Part shown: positions 860 through 64,000 of the stretch, one piece after another
Position numbering within the stretch: the stretch's first letter is position 1
How the letters are laid out: each line of letters starts with the position of its first letter
Assembly (NCBI GenBank): GCA_036172245.1
Contig: JAYWIR010000015.1
Location: 186,001-250,000 of the forward strand
Source of the DNA: Raillietiella orientalis
Lineage: Eukaryota
DNA: 64,000 nucleotides
Reading direction: 5' to 3'
The notes under the pieces: generated by a model
What the model saw: the letters and a program-made list of their open reading frames with translations, nothing else
Told to the model about the DNA's origin: nothing
Databases searched by the model: none
Program-made: the position numbers and the translations under genes

Positions 860-2990
860 CACACAACGAAGGCCAGTAGAGTGAATCCATAGTTTAGAAT
901 AGCAACTGTGATTGTACCACGAGTGTTGAACGGATTGGTGCTCTGAGTGTAGGGTGGACTTTCCGTGTTCTCTCTTCGTATATTAGAATGTGCATATTTA
1001 GTAGATGCTTGGATCCATGATTCTAATAACTTCCTAGTGCCTTGATCATTACTGTTATCGGAATCTAAAGTTTCTATCGGAATTACTGAAGAATGTGTTG
1101 CGAGAAATTATATACTTCCGGTTCGAATGCCATCATGCACCATCGGAGGAATGTTCCAGGAGCGCCTCGAGTTCTGAACCAATCACTTCATAAGCATTTT
1201 CAATCTCGAACACCCGGAATTGTCGCTGGAAGCAATCGATGGAGGAACCTGGTCAAACAGTGGGCCGCTCGTGACAGCGGCCACCCCTCTGTGTGCTTAC
1301 CACACCAAGTCGTGCATTTATGAGGACGCTTCTCCAGTAAACAGGGCCACACAGTTTTGAGGTCAAGAACGTAAATTCCTGTGGACGGACCCAGGATATC
1401 GGCTCCAACCCGCAGCGGTGAATCCATTCAACAAATCCTCCGCCTCCTACTCCTGGACGCCCATCGTGAGCCGGCTCCTCAATAACGGGCAAAGCTGCAC
1501 TGACAAAGGGGATGGTGGGAGACATGGAAAATACCCCCCTTACATTGTCCCAAACATTCTAGAAAGAGATCAGTCCATTGCTGGTTAAAAGTAATGCACT
1601 CGATGTTGAAATAGGAAAAGAATTCTTCAACTAATTGTCTATTACCATTATAAAGTGAAAAGAGATGGAATATGGGTCGAACGTTTGAGTGGAAATTCGG
1701 TTCCGAATTCCACCTACTTAGCATCGTGGCAGGACCGAGCGAACCATTTTTGCCCATGCATCCCTAGTGCCTATGGGACTTTCTTCGCTGGCCATCTGGA
1801 CCGGGTAGATTTTTTTTATAAAGGTCATCAGTAAATCTCCGGAAAAATGGATCTCCAAAAGATGTAACCTCGGTCGTGTGCAGTACTTCCTCGTCTTACA
1901 CCGGCAATGTCAGCCTCACGTGTACCATCCAAACAAGCAGGCTTCCAGGAATCCGGACAATGCGACCATTGCAGATGCCGTGCTGGTCTTCGAGTTGCAA
2001 TTTGCACAAGTTCTAACTGAGTTTTTTTTTTTTTACAAAACCAGATGGCTTATTAGAGGATCTCGGATTATCTAATGTGTGAAAAATAGGCAACTGACAG
2101 TTAGGTGGCATGTCTTTCGAGCACACCACTTGCAGCCAGAAGGCTCTCATCAGCATACGCACCATCTCGAGTTTCATATTCGTTGTTTTCATCTTTTATC
2201 CTTGATTCCCAACAAATTTCCTCAAGATGTCTTCTTTAAAGCAACGTCCCGTCATAATGGTGAAGTTCCTTTTCGAATAGTTTCTTTTTCTTCTTTCCCC
2301 AGAAATCCCAGAAAAAACTGGACGTCACTTGACAAAAAAAAGCGCATTTTTGTTGATCTTCCTGATTCTGGGGAAGGAGGAATCCTTCTGTTGCACAGGT
2401 CACACCGTTTAAGGTGTCTATGGACCGAGCGGGCCATTGTCCCTCACGAAGACGAGTCCACTCCGTGATTTTCCCATTGGTCGCCATGAGCTTCCGCCTT
2501 CACCCCCACAATGCCTGCTTAAGACGTGGTACTATTTTGACGATGCCCGAAATTTGCTCTTTCTCCTCCGTCGCGCAGTATCTCGGACAATCAGCTTCGG
2601 GCTTGGCAGGTCGGTGTCAGGTCTTCTTTGCAAAAAAAGAAATGGAAGTCCCAGTTTTTTAGCACGTTGTTCACTCTCCGAGAGCTCGGTTTTCGTCGTG
2701 TTCCTCACTTACAACCGCTCACCGACTCCTTCAGCAGGAAGACACGGCTGAAATTTGGCCTCATTGTGGATCAAGCATCCGTAAGAAATCGCGGCTGAAA
2801 ATAGAAATTCCTTTGGGATCTTCTGCTTTCTCTGCCTTCTTCCAGCTTTTTTTTGGGTAGGGGGGGGAGTAGAGGGGGCCTCTATTTCTTGCTTCGCTAA
2901 GCACTCCAGGAACGTTGGCCTTCCTACGGAGGACTCACAAGACTCTTCAACTCTGTCCACACCATCCGAGGGTGCGTGTAACTCTTCAAG
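860..2990 (-). pseudogene. Decayed Maverick/Polinton-type protein-primed DNA polymerase B (core and C-terminal part)
   Basis: Minus-strand fragments in the expected order across frameshifts: HRHLKRC..RIPP..KMRF then FFWDFWG (cf. H..C...P...F / DFE); IIRDP...RTCANCN (endonuclease VII-like VRDH...CN); KGVFS...LPVIEE (cf. KGVFPYEY...LP); FVEWIHRCGLEPISWVRPQEF (cf. YGLDP); STQRGG (RGG motif); MAFEPE; TRKLL...KYAH. Matched by eye. Confidence 0.6.
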
Positions 2991-2996
2991 ATAGAG

Positions 2997-4154
2997 TTTG
3001 TCGCCCGGTCACGCCGGGGAGTTTATTATAAAAAATAAGAAACATACATGTGTAGGGCTGTCGGCCCCACAACATCCCCAAATATACCGAACCTGCCGAG
3101 TAACCAGCACGCAGACAGGCGGGGTTCGCCTCGGCAGCGGAGGGAAAGGGGGCAAACAAAAATAAAAATCAATAAAAAAAACTCTGACGAGCACAGGAAG
3201 GCACTGTCCACTTCATGAGGAGCACTGTCCACTGGAAGGCGTCCTCTGCATCCTTTCCAGGATGCTGGCAAGTTCCATCCGAGTATGCCCCTGGTGGGGC
3301 CATCTTGCGGCCGTCCTCATGAAGAGCAGGGCGAAGCCGATGGCGTCCCTGTCGCGCCGTTCTCCTCTCGCCGCAATCCCGCGTAGGCAGCAGCATAAGA
3401 CCTGCTGGGAATGCGGCAGGCGAAAAGGCGTCGCTCACGAAGAGGCGCTTCGTCACTTCGCTGGGATCTTCCGTCGGTGCACCAAGGGCAGTGGCGTAAA
3501 TCAACCACAAGGGTCGGAGGGCAACACAGTCTACGAGCGGGTGCGGGTGCTAGGATACTCGTTCCCCGCAGCTGCAACAGTTGGGGTCCACAGCCACCCG
3601 GGTCCAGTGAGAGCGACTCACGTTACACGATAGACCCCAGCGCAACAGCAGAAGTGCCGACTGCCACTTCGGGGGGAGGGCTTGGTTGTTCTTCAGAGCT
3701 AGGGGCCACTCGAAGTCTTCCTGTGGGAATCCCAGCAGCTCAACCCAGCCGAATAGTCTTTTCGGTGGGGCAGTTGGGGTCGCAGCGTCCGTGATCTGGC
3801 CCGTGGTCCAACCACCTAATCTCTTCGCTCTTCCACCAACCTCACATCGGGCCTTCCTTCTGATCGGCTAGTTAATATGCCCAAGTGCTCCCTGAGGGAG
3901 GGCAGTACCGCGGCTAGGGAGGTTCTTTGCGTCCACGCACAGGTGGTGAACTGCATGATAACGTTCTGCAGCGAGCGGTTGTTGTAGAAGGAGGGCAGCA
4001 GTCGCTTCCGCATCTCCGGGCTCGCTCCGTTGTTTTTGGCCCACGTGCGAACGGTTTCCTGCAACCGGGCACTACCCTTCGAGGGCCGGCAGAAGATCCA
4101 GTTTTTGGTGCTGGTCAGTTTGACCACCTGCCGGAGCTCCAGTCCGCTTGAAGT
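2997..4154 (-). mobile_element. 5'-truncated L1/Tx1-like LINE 3' end (zf-RVT region and 3' UTR) inserted with a 5-bp TSD
   Basis: Minus translation WQSALLLLRWGLSCNVSRSHWTRVAVDPNCCSCGERVS*HPHPLVDCVALRPLW resembles the L1 ORF2 CCHC finger. The 3' end reads AATAAACTCCCCGGCGTGACCGGGCGACAAA. TAGAG is duplicated at 2992-2996 and 4155-4159, and the host sequence rejoins when compared with the uninterrupted copies near 52490 and 63355. Confidence 0.7.
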
Positions 4155-4700
4155 TAGAGGGTAACCCAGGAGGGACCACCCTATGAGTCCAGGAAGGTTC
4201 CGAGGATGGAGTCCGTTCCTTTTACTCTTGGGAGGAAACCCTGAAGGGAACCCTCGTCCTGGTTGTCTCCGAGGGGAACTCCCGTAGGAGGTCAGTCTTC
4301 GTTTCTTCTCCGGAGGGAACGGAACTCGCAAGGGAACCGTGTCCTCTAGGAAAAAGAACCCCGAAGGGACGCTTCCCAATTTCTCTGAAGGGCGCTTTCC
4401 GAAGAGGGTTGAGCGCTTCCTGATACTCGGGAGAGACAATCCCCTGAAGGGGGTACAGCTTCATTTTCACATCCAGAGGGGAACCCTGAAGGAAACCGAC
4501 TCTCCTTGATTCCTGAGAGGACCCTGGAGGGTCTATCCTAGTTAGTCAACAGGGGCATCCGGCTTCCACTAGCGCCACACCCGAAGCCTGCGGGAAGGAC
4601 TCGATACCCGCTTCGTGTCCATTTCTCGGCGTCGATCCTCCACGTGGAGGTTCGAACGCGCGGCGCTCGATGCTACGCGCGAAGGCCCTCTAACGCGGGT
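4155..4700 (-). repeat. Family-X repeat, copy 1 (continues at about 2890-2996 beyond the L1 insertion)
   Basis: The reverse complement aligns by eye with 51802-52530 and 62745-63460. A 24-bp block CCACGTGGAGGATCGACGCCGAGA is identical at 4624-4647 (reverse complement) and 62810-62833. Confidence 0.85.

Positions 4701-6360: not shown

Positions 6361-6436
<76 letters not shown>
6361..6436. repeat. Compound microsatellite (AC)22(AT)16
   Basis: Read directly from the sequence. Confidence 0.97.
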
Positions 6437-6440
<4 letters not shown>

Positions 6441-19249: not shown

Positions 19250-22200
19250 CTTCCTGGGTCTCTAGCTTTTCATCTTGGGAGCAAGTCCCATCTGGGTAGG
19301 CAAACATCGGGAGACGGATGCAAACAACGGGAACCAGGGTGGAGCGAAGATGAACCGTCTCCAGAAACTGGGAAGCTGCAAATCGTGGGTATGAGAGCAT
19401 GCTTCCAGCAGAGGAGATCAGCGGACAGAAGATAGAAAGGCACCTCTGGGCGAGATATGCATCTGGAGAACCTGCGGAAGCAGATTCAAATCTCCACCTG
19501 AGATGCATCGTCCCGTTGGTGTGCTACGCGGCTCGAACAGCTACTGAGATGTATTCGCTGAGGAGTTGGCTGCAGGAACGAGCGGTCAGCTTGTCTTGAA
19601 AACACTTGAACACTTGTCTTGATCGGAAATGAAAAGTCAATTCCTGAGTCGGGCATACTGTTCTGCAGGAAGATTTTCCATGCAACCGAGAACACTTGGG
19701 GTCTGCGGGATTTGCCCATGAGGCGCGTCTCAGTACACTACCTGTGGGAGCCTCCGTTACCAGAGATTGAACCTGAACTAGATTTGCTAATTCGTAACAT
19801 GAGAAGAATCCCTCAAGCACGTACGCAGTCAAGGAATCAGCAGCTCGGCTCTAATGGCTGAAAGACCGGATGGGCTGCAGTCTGGATAAAGAGACTCCTC
19901 TTTAAGGATCTTGGAGAGATCATTTAGCACAGAAATGTTGGGACTCGTCTCCTGCCGGCTCGTTCTTGGGACGGACCCCAAGTGTGATGAAGATCTAGCA
20001 CTCCAGAGCGGAGGACGAGTGCTGGATGTCGTTTGTCCACTTGAGAGCTAAATGATCTCTTCAAGAGAGTCAAGAAGAAGAGGACGGTGAAAAAGTATTG
20101 AGGTTTAGCCCTTCGTTGGAACGTGTGTTCTCTTGTGAGAAAGATCGCTGCAGCATCTTTGGGATCATGAAGCCTCACCTGATCTGAGGTGAGGGGAAGA
20201 CTGAAGACAGATCACATCAGCAAGCAAATGGTGCACTTCGAACATCAAACAATTCCGAGATGCACATCAGGAGTCAGTTGGACCACGCTGACCTAGGCCA
20301 CGATGAACTCAACCTCCGAGAGAACCAGTTTCGTCTGGAGAGTGAGGGAAGGACAGACTACTTCGGACGTGAAAATGAACTGGCTGTTTGAGTGGGGATC
20401 GCCGAGGTCATTGACTCCAGGCGGAGCGGTTGCATTTACACGTGCCCTCGTGGTTGGAGGTTTCTGACGGAAACAATAAAAGATTGGCAGCCGCAAGAAG
20501 AGTCCGCATTGAAGATCGAACCATCCAATTCACTGACTGGTTAAAAGAACCTCCTCGCATCTCGAGATCGACTCATGCCGACCTTCTTCCATCTTTCTGT
20601 TCTTCTGAATCTGGACTGAGGGAGCAGGGAAAGGAGCGAAAAAGGAGGAACAAATTTCCTTTCTCAGAGAGCGCGAAATTGGCATTCCAGACGACTCACG
20701 CAGCTGCAGGATGCACCGGGACTTCGTTCCTACGATTCTGTCTAATACATGTGTCAATATGTGTTTCGTGGCGTCTGCAAGAGATGTCCACTTCCGTCAG
20801 TCGATTCTGCTATAAACATAGCAGAATCATGGGCATCCCGCTCTTGCATAAACATGCAAGAGCGGGATGCCCATCGATGATCAGCAACACCCGCAGCAAC
20901 GATTCTGGATCAGTGATGGAAACACGGATGCCGCCTCTCTCCTCACGTGTTCATTAAATTCTTTTTCTCCGCCTCCTCGTGATCACTCTTGTCACTGAGG
21001 CATCACGTCCTGTTTCTCCATCTTCCCGTGATGCGAATCGAGTGTGATCTCAGAGTGGATGTTTTGCTTCTCTCAGCTAAGCCTTCGTCCAGGAAGTGCG
21101 GTGGAAAGCTTCTTGCCAGGAAGACACCTGACACCTGCAGACCCCATCCACTGAGTCAATATTTAAAGACGTGCGCGAGCCTCGCATGAAAAATTCCTTC
21201 TTCAGCTTTCAGAGTTACTGTAAACATCGGGATGCTGAAGTGCGAGCAGCGGACCACACTTGGGGTGACTGCTCCGTCGGATACTTTTTACCTGCAGAAG
21301 GGAGGGTCGGCCTCCGAGGTGCTCAAGACACCCCAGAAACGTGTACATCGCCTCCACATTTGCGTTGATGATTTATCCTGACGACCATAGCCTCAGATGG
21401 TTCCTGTTCACTCATGGTCTCGACAGAGGAATGGCAAATTTTTCTCAACCGTGAACGCCACATTAGAAAGCATCCTTCGATATATCCTCTAGTGATAGCA
21501 AGATGCTCAAGGCTATATAGGATTTCCTAGTTCGTTCTCCAGGATTACGGAACAGTCAGCTATTATCGCTCGCCCTTGGAGGTCTTCTCCAAAGAAGTCA
21601 GTTTTCCTGGAAAACCGAATCACACAAGGCGAAATAACACCCGTGGCTGTCGCTTTCTTCTGGATTAGCAAAACAACGAGTGGACGACGAAGACAACAGA
21701 CCAAATAAAACCACAAGCGTGCGGGCAGAATCTCAAGAACCCAGCCTCTTTTCTGCTGCTCCTAGGCAACGGGTCTCAGAATTCCCATCGTGGGAAACCG
21801 GTTTTCAATGTGTCCCGACTTCCAAGCAGTGTTCCTGATCTTTCTACAGGCTCGCAGACACCTGCATGGAACAGTGTGCCTCTGCGCCAGACAGAGATAC
21901 TTTCTTTATTGTCTATTAAGCGATTCCAGCATGCAAGAAACAGGGGCCGAGCGGTTGCGCTTTTAATCAAAATCCTCCTACCAGTGGGATGGACGCCCAG
22001 TATATTTCACGCTGGTTGTAGTTTCACGACATGACGCAGGAACTATCGGTTTTCTTTACGACGACAAGCCAGGTACACGGGAATGAATCTGAAGTAAAGT
22101 GGACCATATAGCTGAAATATACTCAGGAGTTCGAAACATGCTCGGATACAGGAAATGACTTGGAAATCATTTCTATTACCCGTTCCTGCAAATGAACTCG

Positions 22201-32594: not shown

Positions 32595-33408
32595 CCGGTC
32601 ACGCCGGGAAGTTTATTATAAAAAATAAGAAACATACATGTGTAGGGCTATCGGCCCCACAACATCCCCAAATATACCGAACCTGCCGAGTAACCAGCAC
32701 GCAGACAGGCGGGGTTCGCCTCGGCAGCGGAGGGAAAGGGGGCAAACAAAAATAAAAATCAATAAAAAAAACTCTGACGAGCACAGGAAGGCACTGTCCA
32801 CTTCATGAGGAGCACTGTCCACTGGAAGGCGTCCTCTGCATCCTTTCCAGGATGCTGGCAAGTTCCATCCGAGTATGCCCCTGGTGGGGCCATCTTGCGG
32901 CCGTCCTCATGAAGAGCAGGGCGAAGCCGATGGCGTCCCTGTCGCGCCGTTCTCCTCTCGCCGCAATCCCGCGTAGGCAGCAGCATAAGACCTGCTGGGA
33001 ATGCGGCAGGCGAAAAGGCGTCGCTCACGAAGAGGCGCTTCGTCACTTCGCTGGGATCTTCCGTCGGTGCACCAAGGGCAGTGGCGTAAATCAACCACAA
33101 GGGTCGGAGGGCAACACAGTCTACGAGCGGGTGCGGGTGCTAGGATACTCGTTCCCCGCAGCTGCAACAGTTGGGGTCCACAGCCACCCGGGTCCAGTGA
33201 GAGCGACTCACGTTACACGATAGACCCCAGCGCAACAGCAGAAGTGCCGACTGCCACTTCGGGGGGAGGGCTTGGTTGTTCTTCAGAGCTAGGGGCCACT
33301 CGAAGTCTTCCTGTGGGAATCCCAGCAGCTCAACCCAGCCGAATAGTCTTTTCGGTGGGGCAGTTGGGGTCGCAGCGTCCGTGATCTGGCCCGTGGTCCA
33401 ACCACCTA
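32595..33408 (-). repeat. Second copy of the L1/Tx1-like 3' fragment, 812/814 identical to 3005-3818
   Basis: Direct comparison at offset 29590. The only differences seen are G>A at 32609 and 32650. No TSD is evident. Confidence 0.95.
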
Positions 33409-33874
33409 CTTCCTTCGTTCCTTAGCTCTCCTGGAGCTGCCACCGAGTCCTCAATGGAGCAGGCGACGTCCGGGATGATCTGCTCTTCTGTCTACCGACA
33501 AGATCCGGTTGAAGCATGGCGTCGGCTTCCGGTGTCGAATGGCTGAGGGTCACATTACCTTCATTTCCAAAAAGCTCTCCCGTTCCTGTTCCTGAAACTG
33601 GCTACCTATGTCTTTTGTTCTTGCCTCGTCATTCGTCAGTAAGCTAGAAGAGACAGCCGAGTTTTCGGAGGAACAGTGACCAAGTCCTGGCTTATCTGAT
33701 TATGAAATGTTGGTGATCTTCCCAAGCAAATGCAAGGAGTCCTCAGTGTACGTGCAATCATCTCACCTATGCTGACAGATGTCAGATGAGGTAATGCTGG
33801 AAAGTTTCTTGTGATAAAACAGCAGTTACACCTAAAGAGTTCCACCCAGATGATCCATATGCATGCAGGCCGCG

Positions 33875-34475
33875 CATTCTAACTGCTGAAAGTCTGGTAG
33901 CATGCGCTTCCCATGCTCATCAGCTTTCTAAGGTCTCACTGTAATATTTGTCACTACCACTGAGGTCTGCTCGTGAGGCACCATCGGTTGAGCTCATTTC
34001 CCGGACCCTTCTGCGCTTAGCGTTGCGACTCACCTTCTCGCTATCCGCCGCCCTTTGACGAAAAGCTGATTCGTACTTTGACGGTAAGGTGGCTTTCCCT
34101 CAGCGATTTTTGGAGGTGGTATTTGCCGCTTGAATGTCATTTATCTTCAGGGTCGGTTGCTTCAGAGGATGAGTCGTTACGCACTCCTTAGCAGATTCCG
34201 ACTTCGGTGATTGCCACCGTCCTGCTGTCCATAGCAACCGACAGTAACTTCCATGGTGCCTGACGAACATCATCTCATTGGAAGCTCCTTGACCCGAGGT
34301 TCCGTTCATCTAATGGCTCCAGAACTGCTTGCTAAAACAGGTTCGCTGGTCGCGGCAGTCATAGATCTGGCAGCGTGAGCTTCAGAGTTCAAGAGTCGGA
34401 ATTCCCACCCATCTAAAGTTTGAAAAATAGGTGAGATCACTTAGACTCCAAGGTCGAATAGCAATCACCCTTTCA
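33875..34475 (-). pseudogene. 28S rRNA: Degenerate 28S (LSU) rRNA fragment
   Basis: The plus strand matches the reverse complement of conserved eukaryotic LSU blocks in order: AATATTTGtcACTACCAC (~33943), GAGTcGTTACgCACTCCTTAGCaGATTCCGACTT..GCCACCGTCCTGCTGTC (34171-34229), ACCCATcTAAAGTTTGAaAA (~34407). It carries many substitutions and indels. Confidence 0.85.
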
Positions 34476-35749
34476 AGTTTTCTCATCCCCAACTTTAGCA
34501 AAGGACGGACGCGTTCCTTGCCAACGCAAGGAGACTGACACAAAGTTGTGGGAGAGAAAATCGACTTTGTTTCGACTTTGCTCCGCCGCGGTTCAGCAAG
34601 GATGCCTCTCTGTGCGGATTGCGTCATGGGTTGCCTTTCAGAGCAGCGCCAGTTCCGTCTCGCCTTCTGGGTCCGTCCGTCCGGATTATGTTTCTCTTCT
34701 ACTTTTGTCTGATGAAAATTTTGTTCTCCTTCATCCCAAATCGCTGAACTGATTCTCCCTTGAGGTGGTGATCTTTTCTGGCTCTACGATGATTCTCAGA
34801 CAGGAGCGATCTTTGACTTGAAGTCTAGATAGTCTTCAGGATGGAATTTCCATGCATCTTTGTGCCTTTGTATGTGTTTGACCCATCGCTATAGGTGTCT
34901 GTACAGTGTTTGTTTTACTCACGATATCTGTTCTTAGGAATTGCAATCGTTAAAGCAGTTCTAATCTTTAAAATACTCTGATTGTACCATTTAGCACGTG
35001 TTGCATTTGTACCCACTAAACCACATGTGTTGCAGCACTTCCGTACAATCCAACTTCAGCTTCGTCTATTTCGATCTTTCGTTTTTTTTTTTTCAAAATT
35101 ATGAATACAATGACGAGGATGCTGAGTGCACTGAGTACACTGCCACCCGACTGTACACTGTCTTTCCGACTTCTGTGATCTGTGAGGTGGTTTGCTTTGA
35201 AGTTTGCCCTTCTCTGACTGCAACAAGGTTCTTTCTGTTCATTGGCTTTCATGGGTTAAAAATCAGTCTTTTCCAAGTATGATTTCCCGTCCTCAAGCGT
35301 TATCTTTCCACTCGTTCTTTCCTGTGATCTTCTGCAAAGAAGAAGAGTTTTCTCTCGTTCTTAATGCTTCGAGCCACCGTACGGAACGATGGCTCCTGTT
35401 CCAGGCAATGCGACCGTGCCCGCCGTTCCTCCGCACTCGTCCCTGGAACCCGCAATTTCTTGTGGTTCTTGTCCCCGGAAAAATTTTTAGCGGTCCCACA
35501 TATCTCACGTACGCCACCGGCGATCCCGCGAGATCCCTTCTCCCTTTTCCCTCGCCTTCCCCGCGCCCTCTCCGTGCTTCGAAAGCAAAACGCGCCGGAC
35601 GGCACAGGTTTCTTCCTCCCCACTTGCGATCCGTTTCCAGAATCGGGAGTCACGGGAAGCTGGTGAGTTCGCCGCAGAGGAACTCACCGCCTGGGGGGGA
35701 CACATCCGCAGCACCTCCTCCCTTGCGCTCACACCTCCCTCCGCTCAGA

Positions 35750-36830: not shown

Positions 36831-39139
36831 AAATGCACTTCGCAGACTCTTTGCAAATGAGCGAATAATCCTGCAAGTCTTCGAGAACTATTTTTTTTTT
36901 TGTTTTTTACCTTAAAAAAAACTCCTTTCCAACGAAACTGAGCGCTAAGAGCTATGGATGCTGCCTGCTCTTGCAGTTTGAAGTCCCAAGTTCGAAAGGC
37001 TTTTACTCCTATTGAGTTACATCACTCCATTTTCATCTGCGTCCTACGTGTTATTCATTCCTGAATTATTCACTCACTTCCTAGAAATTCACATTTCTGA
37101 TGCCCGTTCTGATATTTCAGGAAATGTGAAGGATGCGATGGGAATTCCTCAAGCCGTTAAGGCCTGTCTTCCTTATTTTATCATTCCTTTCGGAATTCAT
37201 TCAAGGCGTTTATGTTTCTTTCTTTTTTCTTTTTCTTTTCTATTTTTTTTAACGATGCGTTTTCCTTGAGTAGCTTTTGGCAAGATTAAGCACTCTGCAA
37301 ATCTTTTTTCCTTTTTTTGGAGCCACCTTTTTTCTTTTTGTTTTTATCCAAAATGAGCATCCGATTGAAGTCGCTTAATTTGTTTTGCCTTTTCAAAACT
37401 GTTTTCGTTCGCTGCCTCCTCTCTGCTCACAAGTTTTGGAATTTGCTGCATCGCGCTCGATGTCTGATCTTCTGAAAGCAGTTTGATTGCAGGCATCCCA
37501 CAAGACTGCACCTTGTTCACTGCATATAGATGTACCAAGTCAGAGACATGTATTCAGAAGTATTCGATGATGAGATGATGCGGAATCATTAAGGAAATAA
37601 CGACAAAGTGCCTACACTTTGTCGTTATTTCAGAAAAAGTTCATAGATCTCATAGTTAATCTACGCATTTGGATGCACGATATGTGTGTGCATGTGCTAT
37701 TTATGCATATTTGATTATGTGCCCACCTTTGAATCAAGCAGACATGCACTGAAAAAGTCATTATTTTTTTGCGATTGTATACTCGAATAATTTGGTACAT
37801 TTCAAACTATTGCTAAGGTATGAAATTACACAAATTTTCACAGAGTGTTTAACTGCCTAACAAGATGGCGTGCAGTGTTTTCCATGTGTTTTTGGGTCTG
37901 TTGGATTGCATGGGAGTGTTGCAGCGTTGTCATCCCATGTGGCTTATTAGGTGCAACGCACGTCACCTGATGCAATCCGAGCACTTCGGAAATTGCAACT
38001 CCTTAGAACGGACGTCACGAGGAAACGAGTCATTGTACACATACCCATAGAGACGGAAAGATACAAAGACGTATGGAGATTCCATCCTGAGAAATGACTG
38101 GATTTCGAAGTCAAAGATCGCTCGTATCTGAAGAATCGCGGAGTCGGAGAGAAATCAACGAATTCGACGAGCACGGAGTCGATACTTCACCGAGCGAGGT
38201 GAGTTCTTCCGGGGTGGCGGTCCACGTGCAGCAGCCGCAAGTGGAATCTACAAGAACACGCTTGAACAGGTTGATCGGCAAGTCGTCCCTTCTTATTTGT
38301 GCGTCTTCTCGTTTAAGTCGCGTGTTCCGCAGAGATCATTTTACCGGGTAAGAAATGCAGCGGCTGGCGTGCCTGCTTTTGGAAGCTGGGCTGAGTAAAG
38401 ACGCAACAGTAATTGGCTCATGCACCAGTGGCTTCTGAGGAGCAACCAGATCAGTAAACATTCCCCGAAACATTCATTCCCACAGCAGAAGAAACTGAAT
38501 ATTTCTCAGAAACAATTTCCAAATCGTAGGACTCTAGAGCAATGGATCAGAATGATCTGGCGGTCCCAAGCTTTCCTTGCAAGTTATTCTCCAATTGAAA
38601 GAAAGAGAATCCAAAAGTCATGGAGTAATTAATGGCCATTAGGATTTCGAAGGAATCACGTTTTTTTTTTGTTTTTGTTTTTTTATTACTTTTCTTTGAA
38701 AATGCACCAAGACGTTCTGCAGGCCAAAATCTGCAAATGCCACTAGGATTACCTAGTGGGGTTTCCTCCTTTAAATGTCTCTTTTGCAACTGCAGGCGAA
38801 TTAAAAGTGCTGTTGTGATGCCACGAAATCAAGAAAGAGAACGGACTGAGAGCTCCCTGTCCCTACAGAACCATTGAAACCTATCTGGGGACGAAATATT
38901 CACTTGCAGGACTTCGTTCAGTGAAACTGTTTAAATTTAAAGTTTCCTCGTTTCACAGCGATCTCCAGTTGCAAATTCCCAATTAGGAGCTCATCTCCGA
39001 TTACTTGTCTCGTTTCTACCCAATCAATTTAATTCATCATGAAATCAATTAAATAATTAATTGATTTGGAGATTCCGATCCAATTTGATGGGCTGCGGGG
39101 CTGACTGGAGTTCTTATGGAGACTGAAATGCAGCCCCAA

Positions 39140-48949: not shown

Positions 48950-51650
48950 ACAACGCAAAGCTGGTCACGCTAGCGCGAAGGCAGAGGCGCTGAGACCTGC
49001 CGCAGTGCAGGGAGTGACGCTGCCAATCTTCACCAAGAAGCAGAATGGCAGTTCCCGCGTCACGGTTCCCCGTAAGCTACGAACGAACTGCTGGGACCAG
49101 TTTCTGAAGAGCAGCATCCGAAGCTGGGTCCATCCGCTTGTCTGCAGTTGGATGTCAATGATGTGACGTGAACGGCTCAGGTTGCAGGTTTCTTTGCTAA
49201 GCCCTCTTCCAATGCACCGTGCACAAGAGATGGTTCTCTTCGTAGTCTCCCAAGAAGACCACGGCTTGCGGTTCCTTCCCGCCCGAGCTGACGGTGGCCC
49301 GTGGAGAGGTCCGACTGAAAGTGACCAGCTCTGGAGAAGGGGTATCAGAGGATTCCTCTTGCCGGACGTGTCAGGATGTCAGTAGCCTGGTTTTGTCTCT
49401 TTCAATGAACCATCCTGGCATGCTAAAGAGATGCAAATCGTTATCGCACATGGTCCCTTCTCTTGCTTAAACTTTGATCCATGGTGGTCATTTAGAGTGA
49501 GTAAATTCCGATCTTTCCCTCCCTCCCCGGTTCCTTTTTCGCCGAGTCAGAAGTCAGGAGCCGGGTTCAATGTTTTGTAGAAATCGACATCCTTTGAACT
49601 ATTCCTTCCCTACCATCTCCCAGAGCGGATTTCGGTAAGAACTACCAATGATGGACGAAGGTGGCTTGAGGACATCCCAAGCTTGTGGTTTTAGGCTTAC
49701 GGTTTCTTTCTGCGTTCGTGGACCCGACGATGAAACCGACAGCCAGCTGCAGCTTTTCGTCTATATGAGACCCTAAGAGCGATTCCAAAAGCAGATTTTC
49801 CAAACGTTCGGAAGACTGCGGTGAGAGATGTGCATGCTACTCTCATTCCTCGACAGTTTCCTATTATAGTACCACTTTTAATTTAATAATGACTCCTGTT
49901 GGGAAAAAGTGAAAAACGTCCAAAGCAGCGGTGCATGCCAATTGAAGGACTCACTGTCAGGATGCACGCAAGGTTCTTCTTGGTTTCCAACCAGGAGCTT
50001 CGGCACTTCGATTTCTTCAAAAATATGGTTTGAGCAATCAATAAGCGCCACCCGACAAAGGATCTCCGGGTAGGGGGAAGCATAAAAGAAAAAAAATTCC
50101 TGCGCCGTTTCTTTCGCAGGTGGTGCGTTGCTGCCCACCAGCAAGTTCGCTTCTCTTCCGCATCCTGATCGAACGGTTTCGCCGTCGCCACGTAGGCACA
50201 TCGCTCTCCCTATGGCACTCTGGAGCATGGCGTGCATCTCGGGAGACATCACGGAGAATTATCTCGAAAAAAAAAAAAAAAAGTGGCAAAATTCCGAGAA
50301 GCTGAATTAACCGATGGAGAGGGGAGGGATTTGCCCGTGACAGAACATAAAGATAGTTTCGACCGAATTCGACCGAAAGATCATGTAGTCACAAAGGTCA
50401 ACCAGATGGCGCTCTTTTTTTTGGAGATGTTTGCATGATGTGACATAGGGTCGCTCCCAGTCTGAATCATCTAAAGGGTACTTCCTGCTATCTCAAGTGT
50501 ACACACGAACACCAGCCGGTTGACGCCTCATTTATGGTTTTAACAGTCACAAGCGTTGAAGAGTGGTGACTCGAATCGATCAACATATCTTTCGTTAAAG
50601 CAACGAATTCACGGTGAGCTCAGTCCCTGTGGAGGGAGGTCGATCGGACCATGCAAGAAGACGAGCGGCTGAAGAAACAACAAGGTGCAACTCGTGCCGC
50701 TCTTCGATCCCTTCGCTAAAGACCTTGCGAGAGGACCGGCTCGAATGTCAGGGAAACAAGCTTATCCCCTCCAAGATCTCCGGATTTTCATCCTCGGAAG
50801 ATCCCATAATTATTTGTATTTGGAACCAGCGAAACAACAACTGCGCCATCATCGCTTTTTTTTTTTCTTTTTTTGTCACTCATCGCAGACGATTGAAAGC
50901 CGGAGAGAGCCAAGTGTCCAATGAAACTTCCTCTTCCAGAGAGAAACAGCAATTCTTGCAAAATTAGACGTTCACGGCTCAGCTGCTCATACGAGATGCA
51001 TTTGTGATTTGCACCCCATTTTCTTGGCGAAGAGCGATTTCTGGTACCGTTTCGTGAATGCGTTCAACGCTCTTTTGTTGGAATACCTCGTTAACCTGCC
51101 CTTGTAGCAGTAAAACTATCCAATATCATCCTGATAAGATTGCAGCATCCTTTTTAACGATAGAAATGATTGTCTTTTCAAAGAGGGGATAGAGTTCTTT
51201 CACTCATGCGTCTTCGAACAATTTCCAAACCAAGTGTTCCTCTTAGCATTCACGGACAGGCTGCAAGGGAAATAGGAAATCGGGAAGAGCAAAAGGTCCT
51301 CCTCTCTTTCTGGAATCGTCATCGTCCCTACCAGCACTCTGATTTCGCCGAATCGGGCGGTCCAGCGGCTCTGAGGAAGCGGAAATTTCCAACTACATGA
51401 CAACTAACCCGTGACTCAGTAGCGCAAGGTCCATTGTGCAAGAGCGCTCGCCGCCCTTCGTTGCCTTGCCCTTTGAAAAATGGATTTAAATGGCAAAGCA
51501 GCAGCAGCCGATCTTTAAATTCAGTACTTTGCGAAGGAGAACTATCAGAAACTCCGCATGCGATGGTAGAAGCTGTATTCGGCTTTCTTTCCTCTTCTTT
51601 TGTATACCTCCATCGGAGATGTGTATCTTGTTCATATTTGTGGCCACGCT
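48950..51650 (-). mobile_element. Decayed LINE ORF2
   Basis: VLVGTMTIP, AILSG*Y, KETAQEFFFFYAS, EIEVPKLL..HPDS, TSLTAVF, LENLLL..HIDEKLQLAVGFIVGST, NPLIPLL. Confidence 0.45.
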
Positions 51651-51801
51651 TCCGAGCTCGCTTCCCTGATCGTCCAATTGGATAGCATCGGTAGGACCAA
51701 GGAATTAGAACACTACTTTTGAAATGGAAAATGAAACGGGTAGACTGAGGCAGGACTCTTGGTTACGAGAGTGTCCGCGAAAACTGCGTAAATCCTAGTG
51801 A

Positions 51802-52530
51802 GTCCGTGTCGGAGACCGTGTGGTTACGGTGGTCCCCGCGCGTAGCACCATGCTCGTGGGTTCGAATACTCCGAAGGAATCGACGCAGTGCGTGGTGGGT
51901 TCCGAGTATGATGACGCTGGCTGACCTACATTCATCCGAGTGCGGCACTGGTAGTGGTTGAAACCGGATGCCCCCCATGACGGCCGGGACAAATGGGAGT
52001 CGATCTCCGGGTCCTTCCAGGAATCACGGAGTGGGAGTTTCCCTCCGGTTGTGAAGGAGCGGACCCCCCATTCCGGAGGGGACCCCTCCGCGTCGGACTG
52101 ATGGAGTAGGTGTGCCGCCACCACCTCTCCAGGGAGTACAGAGAAGCGAGCCGATCTCTTCGGGCAAGCTGCGTCCTTCTGAATTTCGTAAGCGTCGCTT
52201 CTGGGTCCTCTTCAGAGTAAACAGGAGTGAATCCCTTGCGGGAGATCCCTCCGGAGAAGGAATTCCAGGATCGTATCCTTTCCGAGTTCCCTTCAGAGAA
52301 GGAAGAATGGAGCGGATCCCCTCGGGGTCCTCCGGAGAGAATCAGGAAGGAGGATTTCCTTCTGGATTCTCTTTCGGAGACAACCAGAGTGGAGGTGATC
52401 TCCATTTCCGGGGATCCCTCCCCAGGCGTGAGAGGAACGGACTCCGAGTCCTTCCTGGATTCATAGGGCGGACCTCTCCCGGGGTTTCCCCTATCTTGAA
52501 GAATTACCCTCCCTCGGGTGGCGTGGAACC
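51802..52530 (+). mobile_element. Family-X copy 2: 729-bp insertion with a 16-bp TSD and a tRNA-like 5' head (SINE-like)
   Basis: GCGTAAATCCTAGTGA occurs at 51786-51801 and 52531-52546. The head carries GACCGTGTGGTTACGGTG and CGTGGGTTCGAATAC (B-box-like, 51859-51869). The body is homologous to 4155-4700 (reverse complement) and 62745-63390. Confidence 0.75.
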
Positions 52531-52619
52531 GCGTAAATCCTAGTGAACCATGAGTATGTGTTACTTTGCTCCGGATTCATTACTATGCCAACGTTTCCCT
52601 TCACCTGACTCAAAGAATA

Positions 52620-55100
52620 TTGTGGAATCCTGTCAGCCGCAGGCTAACTTGTAGGAAGGAGGGATTGGTTCGTAGTTATAACACTTTGACGATGGGTTCG
52701 CGGATATCCCCTGAGCGATGGAGACCCTCTGTCTGAGTAGCAGATTGCGTTTGGCAGAGAACTTCATGATGCTGAAGAACGCTTGTGATGGGTCGCCATT
52801 TCGGTATGCAGAAATCAGCCCCCTACGAAGTGGCGATTTCTCCTCTCAAAATGGCTGCTTCTTCATGGTTGATCAGCAAAGAATTCAGCAGATTTTCCAG
52901 TCAGGTCTTCTGACGAATTTGAAAACTCAGTGTGCCTGGAAATGAAGTAAACACGAGTTCTGAGGAACACCTCGCGGTGGATTTCGTAGCCATCCATCCC
53001 GCTAAAACCGCAAGTGTTCAATAGTTCTCATCGGTCACTTGCTGAAACTACGAATCCGACTTGTTCTTGAACCTTTATCTTGACAATATTTTCCAATGGA
53101 AGAGACAAAGAATAAGCTGAAGAGCAAGAATCCCTAATAAGAATTACGATGTATTTGTATGGGAGTTATTCGGTCACTTGATATAAAACTGCAGAGAGCT
53201 TCATGGTTCAAGATCAGTAATCACTTTTTTTTTTTCTCGGTGCAAGGATAGGAGTTGAAGAATGACCTGTTGATGGATAGTGGAAATGTTGTAAAAGCAT
53301 TTCATTTTGAAGAGAAGTATTTTAGTCTCAAAGACTGGAACCCATCAGTTTTCCACTCTTGGATCGTACTGGTTATTTGCATATAAAAGAGCTTCTTTGC
53401 GAAGGAATGTTGGGTCTTATTGCCATCTGTTACTGTTGCTCAGTTATAATAAAAAATCATTAGACGTATACGCGTCATTCTACTCAGTCCCAATGAATTA
53501 TCTATTCATTGATACTTCATGAATACAAACAAAATACATAGTGTGGTTCAGAGTAATGCACGAACAATAAAAGGTTTGCTATCTTTTTTTTCTTTTTACG
53601 AAGCTTCGCCTATTGCAAAGAGCACGCACGACCCATAGTCCTGGGGCAAGACTATGGGTCATTTTCGGAAAAGGGAAAGCTGATTTCATGCTGGAATAAT
53701 TTGAATCCCTAGTTTTTAAGTTTTACCTACGCAGTCGACTGATTGAAGCTTTGATGTTCGTACCTAAGCGGCAGCAGCAGGATGGCATAAGCTTACCAAA
53801 GTGCAGTTATATGTTTTATGTTATTACTCTGTCATATGCAAGCAGAAGAATTTGTGCTTCCTCAATAAGGATGGATCGGTCACCATTCGATCCGTACCGA
53901 ACGAGTTCAGAGAGCCTGCTTTCCTTCCATCTCATTAATCGCAAGACTCTGTCGCTTACATTGTGCAGTTATTTGAAGAAGTACTTTGCTATTTGAGCTT
54001 CTCCTGTAGTGAAGGTACTCATCACGATGGATAGATATGTTGAACAATTCTGCTGACGACTTAGCATCGTTTTTTCTGAAGCATCCACTATGACTTCGTG
54101 GAATTCTTGTAACTTATTCATGAAATTCGCTCTGTCTACAATGTGGCGTTTCCAAAGCGGATACGTCGATCATCCAGAGATGCTATCTCCCAGCTCTCCG
54201 GTATTGATGTGTTTTTTGCACAATAAATGTCTTCATTCTGCTTTTCATGAATAGACAGAAGCCGTTTACCTTGCCGCCAGTAGGGGTGGCAAGCAGTTAT
54301 GGGTGCTGCCGTTCGGAAACCGGTGGGGCAAAACTCGAAGGAACCAAATAGTATGACGAAATCCTATCGCACTTGTGTGTCGACCTGTTCCAGGAATCTC
54401 CTATTCATCCTGTGTTCCCTCACAGATGGTTTCCCCTTTGCTCGTTATGTCTTTCAAATCCCCCTCATCACTCTCGTTTTCGTCGATGGCTTTACCTTGA
54501 TGGCTGAGGGTTCTCAAATAACAAATCTGTTCGCTTTCCTCCTCCTCTCTCTTCTGTTTTAAACATCGGATCTCCTTCCATCATTCAACCGTTACTATGC
54601 CTTCTAATCTTATCAAGTGCAGGGAGCGTGCATCCATAAAGTAGATTACCTCTTGCCATACCTTCTGAGAGTGATTTTCTTCCAACAAGTTCCGCCACTT
54701 TTGGGCACATACGCTATTAACACTGAATCATATTATTATGGTGTTGTTTTCCTAGCACTGTTTACACACAAAAATAAGGATTTTCCTGATTTGTTACTCC
54801 CTTCCCATTGCTGCAGACTCTGTATGCTGTTTCTGGAGATTTACTCTATTCTTTTCTATCTCCTAGATATTTTGCTTCGCAAAAAAATGTACACCCTAGC
54901 TCAAGTTTCGCTGAGTTGTAGAAAATTACGCCTGATTTCAAAACTTCCCAACACATTTACAATGACTCTTTGGTTCCTCTGCTGGAACCTTGGAATGCAA
55001 CAGCCTCCGGAAAACGCTTGCAAGACGAGCCTGGATTTCGAGACCAAACGCCATCGGTCCGGGAGATAAACACAGAATGAGCGCTCGAACAGGTTGCCTT
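52620..55100 (-). mobile_element. Decayed Ac/hAT-like transposase
   Basis: SHCKCVGK..STTQRNL..H (BED), SIPESW, STSSNNCTM (DNa.Nm), TE*NDAY (TRWNSTY), QEWK, LSR*RFK (LDPRFK), VITTNQSLLP. Confidence 0.4.
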
Positions 55101-60499: not shown

Positions 60500-63400
60500 C
60501 CGTACAGAAGAGCGGCTATTGGATGCTCTCCCTGCGAAAGATTGGAGTGGAGGACACGAAGGATGCCGGATCCTTCGATTCCTCGAAGGAGTCGCCTAGG
60601 AGCGATCGGATTCAGACTTCTCCGGTTACCTTATTTCCGGAGGAAGAGCAGCAAGTTCTAGATGGACTCCCGAACGGACGGGGGTGGGGGAAGGACGAAT
60701 ACCGACCCTCTCTGGGCGTTCTTCTTCCACGAGAATGGAAAGAGTTCAGGAGCAGGGACGATCTGGCGGAAGATTGGAAGGAGATTTCCCTTCAGCCTTC
60801 TGCCAGATCTTCCTCGACCTCGTCGTTTGACCTCCAGGAGCACAGGGAAAGGGTCCACTCCTTTGGGCACAAGGGGAAGAAGAGGTTCTTTATTTGGGCA
60901 TCCTTGCCCCACATGGTAACAGCAAAGAGAAGAGCGCACCAGTCCCTCAGAGAAAGCGTCACCGAGACGAGGGCATCAGAACATTCAGGCAGTCTGTCTG
61001 CGGGAGGGTCGCCTGGACACGGTGCAGTGACAGTCTGAGCTTTCAGAGACTCGGGCGGAATCAAGTGTGGAAGACTCCCCAGAAACCTTTTGCGACTCCA
61101 TTAGGTAAGGTCTTCAGGGAAGTAAGACCTTCCATCTTTCGAGATGTTTCTCTCCCACTCCATGGAGGACTTGTTCAGCTCCTCGTCGCTTCACAATCTT
61201 CCCCCTTCCCATTGAAAAAAAGAAGAAAAAAGAGAACGGCACCTCTTGATGTGAGAGCGGCATTGCTGTTCGAGAAAAATAAGGAGGAAGACACGGAGAC
61301 CGCTGCCTTCCTCCAGAGAACCTCGAGACCTTTTCCCGTCCACCACGCCCATCCGGCTTCCCGAATGAGTCCGACTCTCCTGTTCGAACTCTCCTCCTCT
61401 TCCGGTTGCATCTCGGAGAAGAGCGCTTGGAGAAGCTGGAGGAATCTGCTCGGGAAGGGGAGGTTCGGGAACGCGAACATTAAAGGCTGGAGACCGAGAT
61501 CTGGTGCTGAGGTAACTCCCAGGAGCCGCTCGCGCGGACGCACCGAGTGGAGCTTTCTCGTGAAGCTCCTGGAACTCCATCCCTCTCCGCCGAAGATGCA
61601 GTGGCGCCATTCCTTGCGCTCTTAGCTCGGTGCTTCCGGAATGATGGAGCGTCTGGCCCCGAGATCGCCCGATTCGACTTCGGCACTGGTCGCCTGGAAA
61701 GTCAACGCCGAATGGTGAGAGAAACGAGGTCCGCAGTTCACCTTAGAGAAGAGAAGACTTCCTTTCTTCCTTGGAAGCACAGGGTCATTTCTCAAGATGT
61801 TTCCGGGTAGCTCCGCGGCTCTCTTAAAGTTCAGGCACGGAGAAGGCTCTAGAAAGAACTAAGGCAGGGAACGCCCGCTCCTGGGATCTTGAGGATGGCT
61901 GCGCTCCCTCCCGACCACCCGAAAGACACGTCCTCCTCCCTCGTCCTCCCTTTTTTATCCTTCCCCCCCATCCGCTTCCTTTTCTTCTGGACAAAAGCTC
62001 CGCGTTGGTAGGCCGTCGCCTTTAGGGAAGTCTGGATCCCGCGGAGCGTCGGGATGGCGAGACTGCTTCAGAAAGGAAGAGGCCCACGGGGCGGAGGGAA
62101 AGGACGAAGACGGCGCCATCTCCCGCGGTGGAGGCCGGTTCCGGAGAGAGGGCGTCTGGGAAGGCTCCATGGGGAGAGTAGCGCTCCACTTCAGGAGGGA
62201 CGGCCGTCCCTCCTGGAACTTCCGTTCCCGCAGTTCGGGATCGCTCTCTCCCTCTACGTATAGCCGCCATGAATGATCGCCTTCGCCCTGCTTCCTCAGG
62301 GAAATTGCCGGCGTCTTCGGCGCGCTCCAGAAGAGAGAGAGGGGTGAAGGTGGAAACAGAAACGCAGGTGCTGCTAAAAGCTAGCTTGGTGATGCGAGCG
62401 AAGGTTGGGCAGAGAGGAGCGAACGTGATCCTTTTGAGAGGAAGAGCCGATGGCACCCGCAGGACAACATACGATCGCGCGCGCGCCTTGCGCTCTGCCC
62501 AGAATGCGGCATCTTCCCGGTGAGGAACCGAGCCAGGATCCACCGCTTCCCTCCGCGAACACGGATCTTTTTCTTCACTTCCTCATTCCTCCATGAGGGA
62601 GAGAGGAACTTTCGCCGTCCAGAAATTGACCGTGTCCTCGCGATCAGCTCATGGGAAGAGCTCAGTCATCGCTCTGCCGGCGGTTGCTTGTCCGAGCAAT
62701 GACGCCCTGAGGTCTGCTGCCCTTCGCCCTTCCGCATTCTCGGGGTCCGCGTCTGCGGCCTTGCGGCTATGGTTTCGCTCGTGACACCAAGAGTAAAGGA
62801 TTCGAATCCCCACGTGGAGGATCGACGCCGAGAGAAATGGGTGTATCGCTGGTTTCGAGCTCCCCCCGCTGGATGCCTCTGATTGACCTATCCGGGAGCA
62901 GCATGGTGGAAGTCGGATACCCCGATCATATGGTCGGGATTGGAAGTTGACCCTCCAAATCAAGGAGCCAGTTTTCTTCGGAGTTCCCCTCCGGTTGTGA
63001 AAGTGCAGCCATTGCCCTCCCCTTCCCTTGGAGGGGGACCGTCCGTCGCTTGCCACAGAGATGGTGGATGTACACCCCTCCAGAGCGTGGAGAGCACTCT
63101 GCTCGCTTCGGGCAACGTCCTTCGAAGAAATTTGGAAGCGTCCCTTCGGGGTTCTCTTCAGAGGAGGAAACCAGGAGCGAATTCTTCCCGTTGGGTCCCT
63201 CCAGGAAAGAAATGAGGAGTGGTTCCCATCAAGGGTGACACCCTCGGGAAAATAAGGGAATGGTTTCCTTCGGGGTTCCCAAACGTAAGAGAGGGAAAGA
63301 ATCCTTCGTCCGGAGTGTTCCTGGATTCATAAGGTGGTCCCTCCAGGGTCACCCCTTAACTCTTGAAGAGTCACACGTACCTAGGGGTGGTGTGGGCAGT

Positions 63401-64000
63401 GTTAAAGAGTTTTGTGAGTCCTCCCTAAGGAAACCAACGTTTCTAAAGTACTTGGCATTGTCGGGGAGGGGAGTTTCCTTCTGCTTTTAGGCTTTTGACT
63501 TCCACTGTGGGCGCGTCCGGCTCCTCTTGTGGTCTTACCGACGCGTCTCGAAGGGCTCTTCCCAACGAACGTAGGCAGGCGCAACTGCTCCTGTCCTTGC
63601 GGCTGACACTCTGCCCCTGGTTTGATGGAGTCTAAAGACCTCAACAGTATAGAGGAGCTTCTGAAGAACGAGGATTCGTAATGGAGAACAGGCCAAAGCT
63701 GCTCGGAGCCCTCTGGGTTTCGAGGATTGGAGCATCCTTCTGGCCATCGAATGGTGCTCCCTCAAAGAGGGATCAGGCCCGAACAAATGGTGAGGAATAC
63801 TGGCAGAGGCTAATTGCCCCTTCAAAGTGCCGCGAACGAAGCCCGCAGCCATGGAAACTGTGATCCTTCGCCTTCCTGAGGAACAGACCCTCGCGGAAAC
63901 TTCCCGAAATGACTTTTGGTGCTTTCGTGACACTGAAAGTCATTTTGGGAACGGCGGCATTGCTTGCGTCCGAACTCCAGGCCCTGAGGAAACGTCGGCT
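60500..64000 (+). pseudogene. Decayed N-terminal region of a second Maverick-type PolB (C2H2-like fingers, family-X copy 3 at about 62745-63460), running off the window end
   Basis: SFDLQEHRERVH (C2H2-like), ALCPECGIF, RLPEEQTL..FWCFRDTES (P...F..DFES). DNA homology to 2890-4700 (reverse complement), e.g. 63361-63456 versus 2897-2991. Confidence 0.45.

Follow-up and report, generated by a model that had tools for sequence, protein, structure and literature searches.

A dispersed non-coding repeat of about 700 bp inserted with target-site duplications: a candidate non-autonomous retroposon family

Introduction

Maverick/Polinton elements are 15-20 kb long, end in terminal inverted repeats (TIRs), are flanked by duplications of 5-6 bp and encode PolB and an integrase. 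The hallmarks of LTR elements are TG...CA termini and duplications of 4-6 bp. A transposase that produces duplications of fixed length is ill-suited to a family in which this length varies. For copies made by LINE machinery, truncation of the 5' end is the commonest pattern, and the heads of old SINEs often fail tests of tRNA similarity. A 3' end shared by a SINE and a LINE was reportedly described by Okada et al. in 1997.

According to the SINEBase paper (PMC3531059), SINEs are elements composed of a head, a body and a tail; the head must match a tRNA with 60% identity or more along 60 nt or more, and the A and B boxes count as an indication only. The 175 SINE families of SINEBase span 75-662 nt in the same paper, a range exceeded by the unit described here (710-729 bp).

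This unit lies in a 64-kb window, i.e. the whole stretch of DNA that we analyzed. With its three dispersed copies of 645-729 bp it is a short (<1 kb), interspersed and non-tandem repeat in the SINEBase sense, and it is non-coding, as are the tRNA-derived SINEs without a poly-A tail; it also shares with tRNA-derived SINEs a discrete common terminus, duplications of variable length and an internal duplication, reminiscent of “quasidimeric” variants (PMC3531059). A B-box-like motif, of a quality that occurs in the window at chance frequency, lies about 55 nt from the constant end. Unlike tRNA-derived SINEs, the unit has no covariance-model similarity to tRNA, 5S or 7SL, no A-box match better than those of random stretches and no simple-repeat or A-rich tail.

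With 5'-truncated LINE copies and LINE-dependent non-autonomous retroposons the unit has in common one constant and one variable end, the lack of TIRs and LTRs, and individual duplications of variable length, a feature of SINEs and LINE-dependent retroposons that is found here in two of the three copies. It differs from 5'-truncated LINE copies in that none of its copies carries reverse transcriptase or endonuclease coding sequence or a poly-A. The inverted orientation of two copies is the sole likeness to Maverick/Polinton elements. About 58 kb of non-coding DNA separates these two copies, each of them a short insertion in its own right; no Maverick genes are present, and the duplications measure 11-20 bp, not 5-6 bp.

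Results

The mid copy and its target-site duplication

An earlier note on this DNA had described a mobile unit of 729 bp bracketed by a perfect 16-bp direct repeat. Both copies of the repeat were located immediately around the segment, hereafter the mid copy:

51786..51801, no strand: first copy of the target-site duplication of the mid copy, GCGTAAATCCTAGTGA
51802..52530, no strand: mid copy of the repeat family, 729 bp, 59% GC, starting with GTCCGTGTC
52264..52345, no strand: internal duplication of 82 nt, in the mid copy only (profile positions 406-478 are matched twice)
52531..52546, no strand: second copy of the target-site duplication of the mid copy, GCGTAAATCCTAGTGA
Predicted insertion-free target sequence of the mid locus (i.e. 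without the 729 bp): would contain ...GAAAACTGCGTAAATCCTAGTGAACCATGAG...

If the four nucleotides before the first copy are added, the duplication extends to 19/20 and reads AAC[T/C]GCGTAAATCCTAGTGA; its sole mismatch, C/T, falls at a CpG. Of the exact direct repeats of at least 14 bp spaced 50-2000 bp apart in the 64-kb window, all except this 16-bp pair are T-runs. When the window was simulated with a first-order Markov model, 12 of 100 runs contained one or more 16-mer pairs somewhere in the sequence. Thus the 16-bp repeat is by itself only mildly unusual, and its weight comes from its abutting the exact ends of a segment that has paralogs.

As had been claimed, the homology with the copy near 62745 begins with the very first base of the insert (GTCCGTGTC at 51802, GTCCGCGTC at 62745). 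The 60 nt that precede the mid and right copies share 14/60 ungapped matches, which is the random level. The reported absence of a poly-A tail was confirmed at the end of the insert, and neither end of the element carries an A-run or a simple repeat. A continuation of the mid copy past the duplication was considered from a string common to the tail of the right copy (CCAACGTTTC) and was rejected, 15 of 500 shuffles scoring as well.

Paralogs in the window

The window holds three copies in total, at about 2.9-4.7 kb, 51.8 kb and 62.7 kb; an nhmmer profile built from these three found no fourth one in the 64 kb at E<=10. The features of the left and right paralogs are as follows:

2896..2991, minus strand: far end of the left paralog, 79% identity to 63361-63456
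4152..4700, minus strand: main part of the left paralog, inverted relative to the other two copies; its terminus ACCCGCGTTAGAGG matches GTCCGCGTCTGCGG at 9/14
62734..62744, no strand: first copy of the target-site duplication of the right copy, GCATTCTCGGG, abutting the GTCCG start
62745..63454, plus strand: right paralog, 710 bp, with the GTCCG terminus found in the mid copy
63455..63465, no strand: second copy of the target-site duplication of the right copy, GCATTGTCGGG, 10/11 relative to the first; it begins where the left/right homology stops

Pairwise identities among the three copies are 62.1%, 64.6% and 66.4%, and the corresponding K2P distances 0.55, 0.50 and 0.47. RIP-like hypermutation was rejected as the source of this divergence, the ts:tv ratio being just 1.3-1.9 and the copies GC-rich. 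The left paralog is the most degraded copy and is split by an interruption of 1160 bp (2992-4151). The left and right copies lie in inverted orientation about 58 kb apart, and their homology is confined to the unit of about 710 bp. The GTCCG end is common to the three copies (with the left copy at 9/14 there), and the discrete terminus that they share can be written GTCCGYGTC. The other end varies, the mid copy stopping there about 55 nt short of the end of the right copy. The hexamer TTCGAA is invariant in the alignments of all three copies, in agreement with the earlier note.

A block of 20 nt common to the left and right copies was also found in public collections, at one viral and 15 metagenome loci. 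We regard these as chance matches: they cover merely 20-24 nt in unrelated, apparently bacterial sequence, and no tRNA lies there.

The right copy has its own duplication. Its flanking repeats match at 10/11, with the consensus GCATT(C/G)TCGGG. If position is ignored, i.e. if a match is accepted anywhere in 171 nt, 99 of 1000 shuffles score as well; for a 10/11 match that falls no more than a few bases from two predefined boundaries, a hand estimate gives p ~3e-4. The weight of the right duplication rests on its position. For the left copy, a search of the flanks gave no recognisable duplication (388 of 1000 shuffles score as well). Two of the three copies therefore carry individual duplications, of 16-20 bp (mid) and 11-12 bp (right). 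The right copy, since it has its own 11-bp duplication, is itself an insertion and not a part of a larger element. The claim of a mobile unit flanked by target-site duplications is strengthened by this second, independent duplication at the homologous GTCCG boundary, and the evidence supports a separate mobile unit whose insertion duplicated the target site.

An observation of another kind concerns the interruption of the left paralog. It contains one (3005-3830) of two direct copies of an 826-bp sequence, the other being 29.6 kb away at 32595-33420, with 99.3% identity. This sequence starts with CCGGTCACGCCGGG and ends with ...CCAACCACCTA; visual inspection showed no clear duplication or TIR. 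The sequence is apparently a young element, of unassigned class.

The GTCCG end as a putative tRNA-like head

The likeness of the head to tRNA-Ser/Leu proposed in the earlier note stands at the level of motifs. The strings on which it was based, GACCGTGTGGTTACGGTG and CGTGGGTTCGAAT, are present in the sequence, and a D-arm-like hairpin, ACCG-TGTGGTTA-CGGT, is visible in the mid copy and may resemble that of tRNA-Ser. A B-box-like motif of the mid copy is the following:

51859..51869, plus strand: B-box-like motif GGTTCGAATAC, one mismatch to GGTTCGANNCC, including TTCGAA

In the mid and right copies this motif lies 55-58 nt from the GTCCG end, with one mismatch in each. Matches to the B box with at most one mismatch nevertheless occur at chance frequency in the window (19 observed, 13.66 expected). 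Over the 9 specified positions of the A box, each of the three heads has 3 mismatches in its best match, and 31% of 41-nt stretches drawn at random from the window do as well. TTTT runs, which would stop Pol III, number 0 in the mid copy and 2 in the right copy.

Covariance models and ARAGORN, on the other hand, do not support the likeness. ARAGORN found 0 tRNA genes in the 64-kb window; under relaxed settings the mid head is never called and the right head is called at the 80% setting only, at which the window gives 38 calls. The Rfam models of tRNA, 5S, SRP and snRNA have no match in 51000-53500 or in the whole window. The earlier note had named the absence of a tRNA covariance score as a point against its proposal, and such a score is indeed lacking for all three heads: scans of 121 nt gave no match to tRNA, 5S or 7SL even at E<=10. 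Similarity to tRNA, 5S or 7SL of at least 60% identity over at least 60 nt was thus found neither with Rfam nor with ARAGORN, and the search of phage records brought up no annotated tRNA. In these records (2.3 Gb) the mid head matched 11 entries, 10 of them under annotated protein genes and one in an unannotated record, and the right head matched 0. Judged from sequence comparison, a tRNA origin of the head is not supported.

A near-palindrome centred on CACGTG surrounds TTCGAA in the left and right copies (4628-4660 and 62799-62829; TCGAaCCTCCAC/GTGGAGGaTCGA in the left copy), and a second B-box-like string, GGATCGACGCC, is found 20 nt further on. This palindrome, most of which is gone from the mid copy, is another possible reason for the conservation of TTCGAA.

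Coding content and structure of the unit

Terminal inverted repeats were not found: the first 60 nt compared with the reverse complement of the last 60 nt score at the shuffle level (897 of 1000 shuffles score as well for the mid copy, 120 of 1000 for the right copy). LTR features are lacking too, neither the mid nor the right copy having TG...CA termini or duplications of 4-6 bp.

Between the mid and right copies, the long ORFs of the minus strand show no protein similarity (BLASTP E 0.68), and they have no Pfam family, i.e. no conserved ORF was found, and the minus-strand ORF of the element has no protein match at E<=0.01. The plus-strand ORF has one match among 1.84 billion representatives, P0003; we judged it compositional and did not retain it (an unnamed 1480-aa tandem-repeat translation, 24% identity, 7 stretches).

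The body of the element shows a degenerate periodicity, with lags of about 38-42 and 80-93 nt (array period ~40/80 nt). Folding z-scores of the RNA are -2.50 (mid) and -1.80 (right) over 20 shuffles each, a weak signal slightly better than the shuffles. Conserved sequence strings of the element matched no paper in a literature search, and a keyword search returned only papers on transposable elements in general.

Protein families in the window and the Maverick proposal

The earlier note had placed the other two copies just upstream of PolB-like sequence, and had proposed either a SINE that colonised a Maverick or a Maverick piece reminiscent of VA RNA. We scanned 466 ORFs against Pfam: 95 ORFs of at least 110 aa over the whole window; 148 ORFs of 45-109 aa in the regions 0.8-7 kb and 57.5-64 kb (E<=0.1, all matches below the cut-offs); and 223 ORFs of 68-109 aa in the rest of the window, the region 7-57.5 kb being covered by ORFs of at least 68 aa only. 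To these were added 24 frames read through stops, which extend over about 2.2 kb to either side of the two paralogs, or over 546 nt downstream of the right copy, where the window ends.

Neither set contains a match to the PolB (DNA_pol_B_2), integrase, capsid, packaging ATPase or protease families. No PolB or other Maverick-type Pfam family thus lies beside either paralog or anywhere in the window, and no VA RNA or other Rfam family matches the copies. The link to a Maverick or to PolB is not supported, in either form of the proposal. The same 466 ORFs and 24 frames contain no reverse transcriptase, endonuclease or other LINE-like domain.

The sole Pfam match above its curated cut-off is to Carla_C4, the Cys-rich nucleic-acid-binding protein of carlaviruses, in an ORF at 50599-50964 (plus strand; E 2.5e-5, 24.6 bits for a cut-off of 20.9). 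This match, about 0.8 kb upstream of the insertion, covers a short Arg-rich stretch with a CxxC and is probably spurious. A match to NYAP_N at 8204-8509 (minus strand) was rejected as noise (21.6 bits for a cut-off of 38.6, a poly-K stretch, no homolog). Since the 466 ORFs scanned in the 64 kb contain no credible protein domain, and since the CpG observed/expected ratio is 0.86 at 47% GC, the window is non-coding eukaryotic DNA without strong CpG depletion.

Other features of the surrounding window

A lone fragment of eukaryotic large-subunit rRNA is present at 34128-34268 (minus strand), corresponding to model positions 1199-1334 of 3401 with 73.7 bits, above the gathering score. It adjoins an inverted repeat (34791-34947 / 37992-38137, 70%) and may have been captured in a repeat. 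A palindrome of 46 bp with 91% self-complementarity lies at 20829-20874. A compound microsatellite, (AC)22 followed by (AT)16, occupies 6361-6437 and produces there an Rfam match to SCARNA7, which we consider spurious.

Discussion

We propose that the 729-bp segment belongs to a family of dispersed, non-coding and non-autonomous retroposons about 700 bp long, and that it was inserted through target-primed reverse transcription by the enzymes of a LINE encoded elsewhere in the genome; we give this reading a probability of roughly 0.55. LINE-type retroposition of a non-autonomous element is suggested by the combination of duplications of variable length, a discrete terminus, the lack of TIRs and the lack of coding capacity, the pattern of ends and duplications being judged on three copies within the 64-kb window. 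Duplications of 16-20 bp and 11-12 bp in one family fit staggered nicking of the LINE type. The unit would pass through an RNA intermediate, and the endonuclease and reverse transcriptase would be supplied by a LINE partner outside the window, in which none is visible. Target-primed reverse transcription would then insert the unit. The three copies show no 3' tail in the form of a poly-A or a simple repeat, and no LINE-derived tail is demonstrable on them with no LINE in the window.

Two orientations of the unit can be considered. If the constant GTCCG end is the 5' head and bears the promoter, the tail is shorter in the mid lineage. A second reading, no less conventional, makes the constant end the 3' one, from which reverse transcription proceeds; about 55 nt would then be missing from the 5' end of the mid copy.

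The divergence of the copies bears on their age. Despite a difference of about 34-38% between them, the duplications are intact. Had the mid copy gathered half of the K2P distance in place, an intact 16-mer pair would have a probability of ~exp(-8) = 3e-4 (hand calculation). Because the copies are 62-66% identical and their duplications nevertheless intact, the source lineages diverged before the insertions, which are much younger than the split of these lineages. The earlier proposal of a younger insertion from a source elsewhere is in keeping with this disparity (a copy difference of ~35-38% against a perfect 16-bp duplication).

Several other explanations have to be weighed against a LINE-dependent non-autonomous retroposon. 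The unit could be a bona fide tRNA-derived SINE. Its GTCCG end would then be a degenerate head of the tRNA(Ser/Leu) type that contains a Pol III promoter, and a LINE would retropose the Pol III transcript of about 700 nt. The GTCCG end common to all copies, the spacing of the B-box-like motif in the mid and right copies, the D-arm-like hairpin and the lack of a TTTT run in the mid copy speak for it. Against it stand the silence of the Rfam models on the three heads at every scale (121 nt, 2.5 kb, whole window), ARAGORN calls at background level, A and B boxes no better than chance, two TTTT runs in the right copy and phage records in which no annotated tRNA is matched; SINEBase moreover asks for at least 60% identity over at least 60 nt and takes the boxes as an indication only (PMC3531059). 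We hold this reading to be unlikely. The copies could also derive from the 3' end of an autonomous LINE through 5' truncation, in which case the reverse complement of the orientation chosen in the earlier note would be the sense strand and the GTCCG end the LINE 3' terminus. One constant and one variable end, together with variable duplication lengths and no poly-A, make the classical pattern of a stringent-type LINE. The window nevertheless contains no longer copy with coding sequence. The left copy is the sole one able to extend, and neither its three forward read-through frames (700-2895) nor the ORFs there contain a reverse transcriptase or another family; nor are the long ORFs on that strand conserved between copies. 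This origin seems distinctly improbable.

An event at the DNA level, i.e. without an RNA intermediate, could take the form of a templated or ectopic repair insertion (staggered-end fill-in), of an unrecognised class of DNA transposon or of a chance repeat. The lack of a poly-A and of a LINE in view, the end point of the mid copy, which differs from that of the other two, and the 12 of 100 simulations with a 16-mer pair are in its favour. A one-off templated repair is nevertheless unlikely because a second copy carries its own duplication at the same element terminus, which such repair does not predict. The features of a cut-and-paste DNA transposon or MITE are lacking, the putative TIRs being at shuffle level and the duplications not of a fixed length (16-20 bp in one copy, 11-12 bp in the other). 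An event of this kind, taken as a whole, is in our view very improbable. As for a Pol III-transcribed, VA-RNA-like piece of a Maverick/Polinton, or a SINE within a Maverick whose other copies would sit inside Mavericks next to PolB, the inverted left and right copies about 58 kb apart superficially resemble terminal inverted repeats, and nothing else speaks for it. The Pfam and Rfam results, the restriction of the left/right homology to the ~710-bp unit and the 11-bp duplication of the right copy itself make it extremely unlikely.

The account proposed here, an unclassified non-autonomous retroposon family with target-site duplications, is more ordinary than the eye-catching one of a SINE born from or living in a Maverick, and the family may already stand in a repeat library. 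For repeat annotation it nevertheless provides a defined unit: a GTCCGYGTC terminus, a length of ~710 bp, a body periodicity of ~40 nt and a variant with an internal duplication of 82 nt. A bolder view, which we offer as speculation with long odds, is that of an unusually long SINE-like family (~710-730 nt) whose lineages, ~35-38% diverged (K2P ~0.5), were each retroposed so recently that their duplications are still near-perfect, implying long-lived and independently evolving master RNAs. Their head would be a tRNA-Ser-like Pol III head too degraded for covariance models, or the RNA would be a fast-evolving structured one occasionally captured by LINE machinery. If the pattern of divergent copies with intact duplications holds genome-wide, it would mean that several old source lineages have stayed active.
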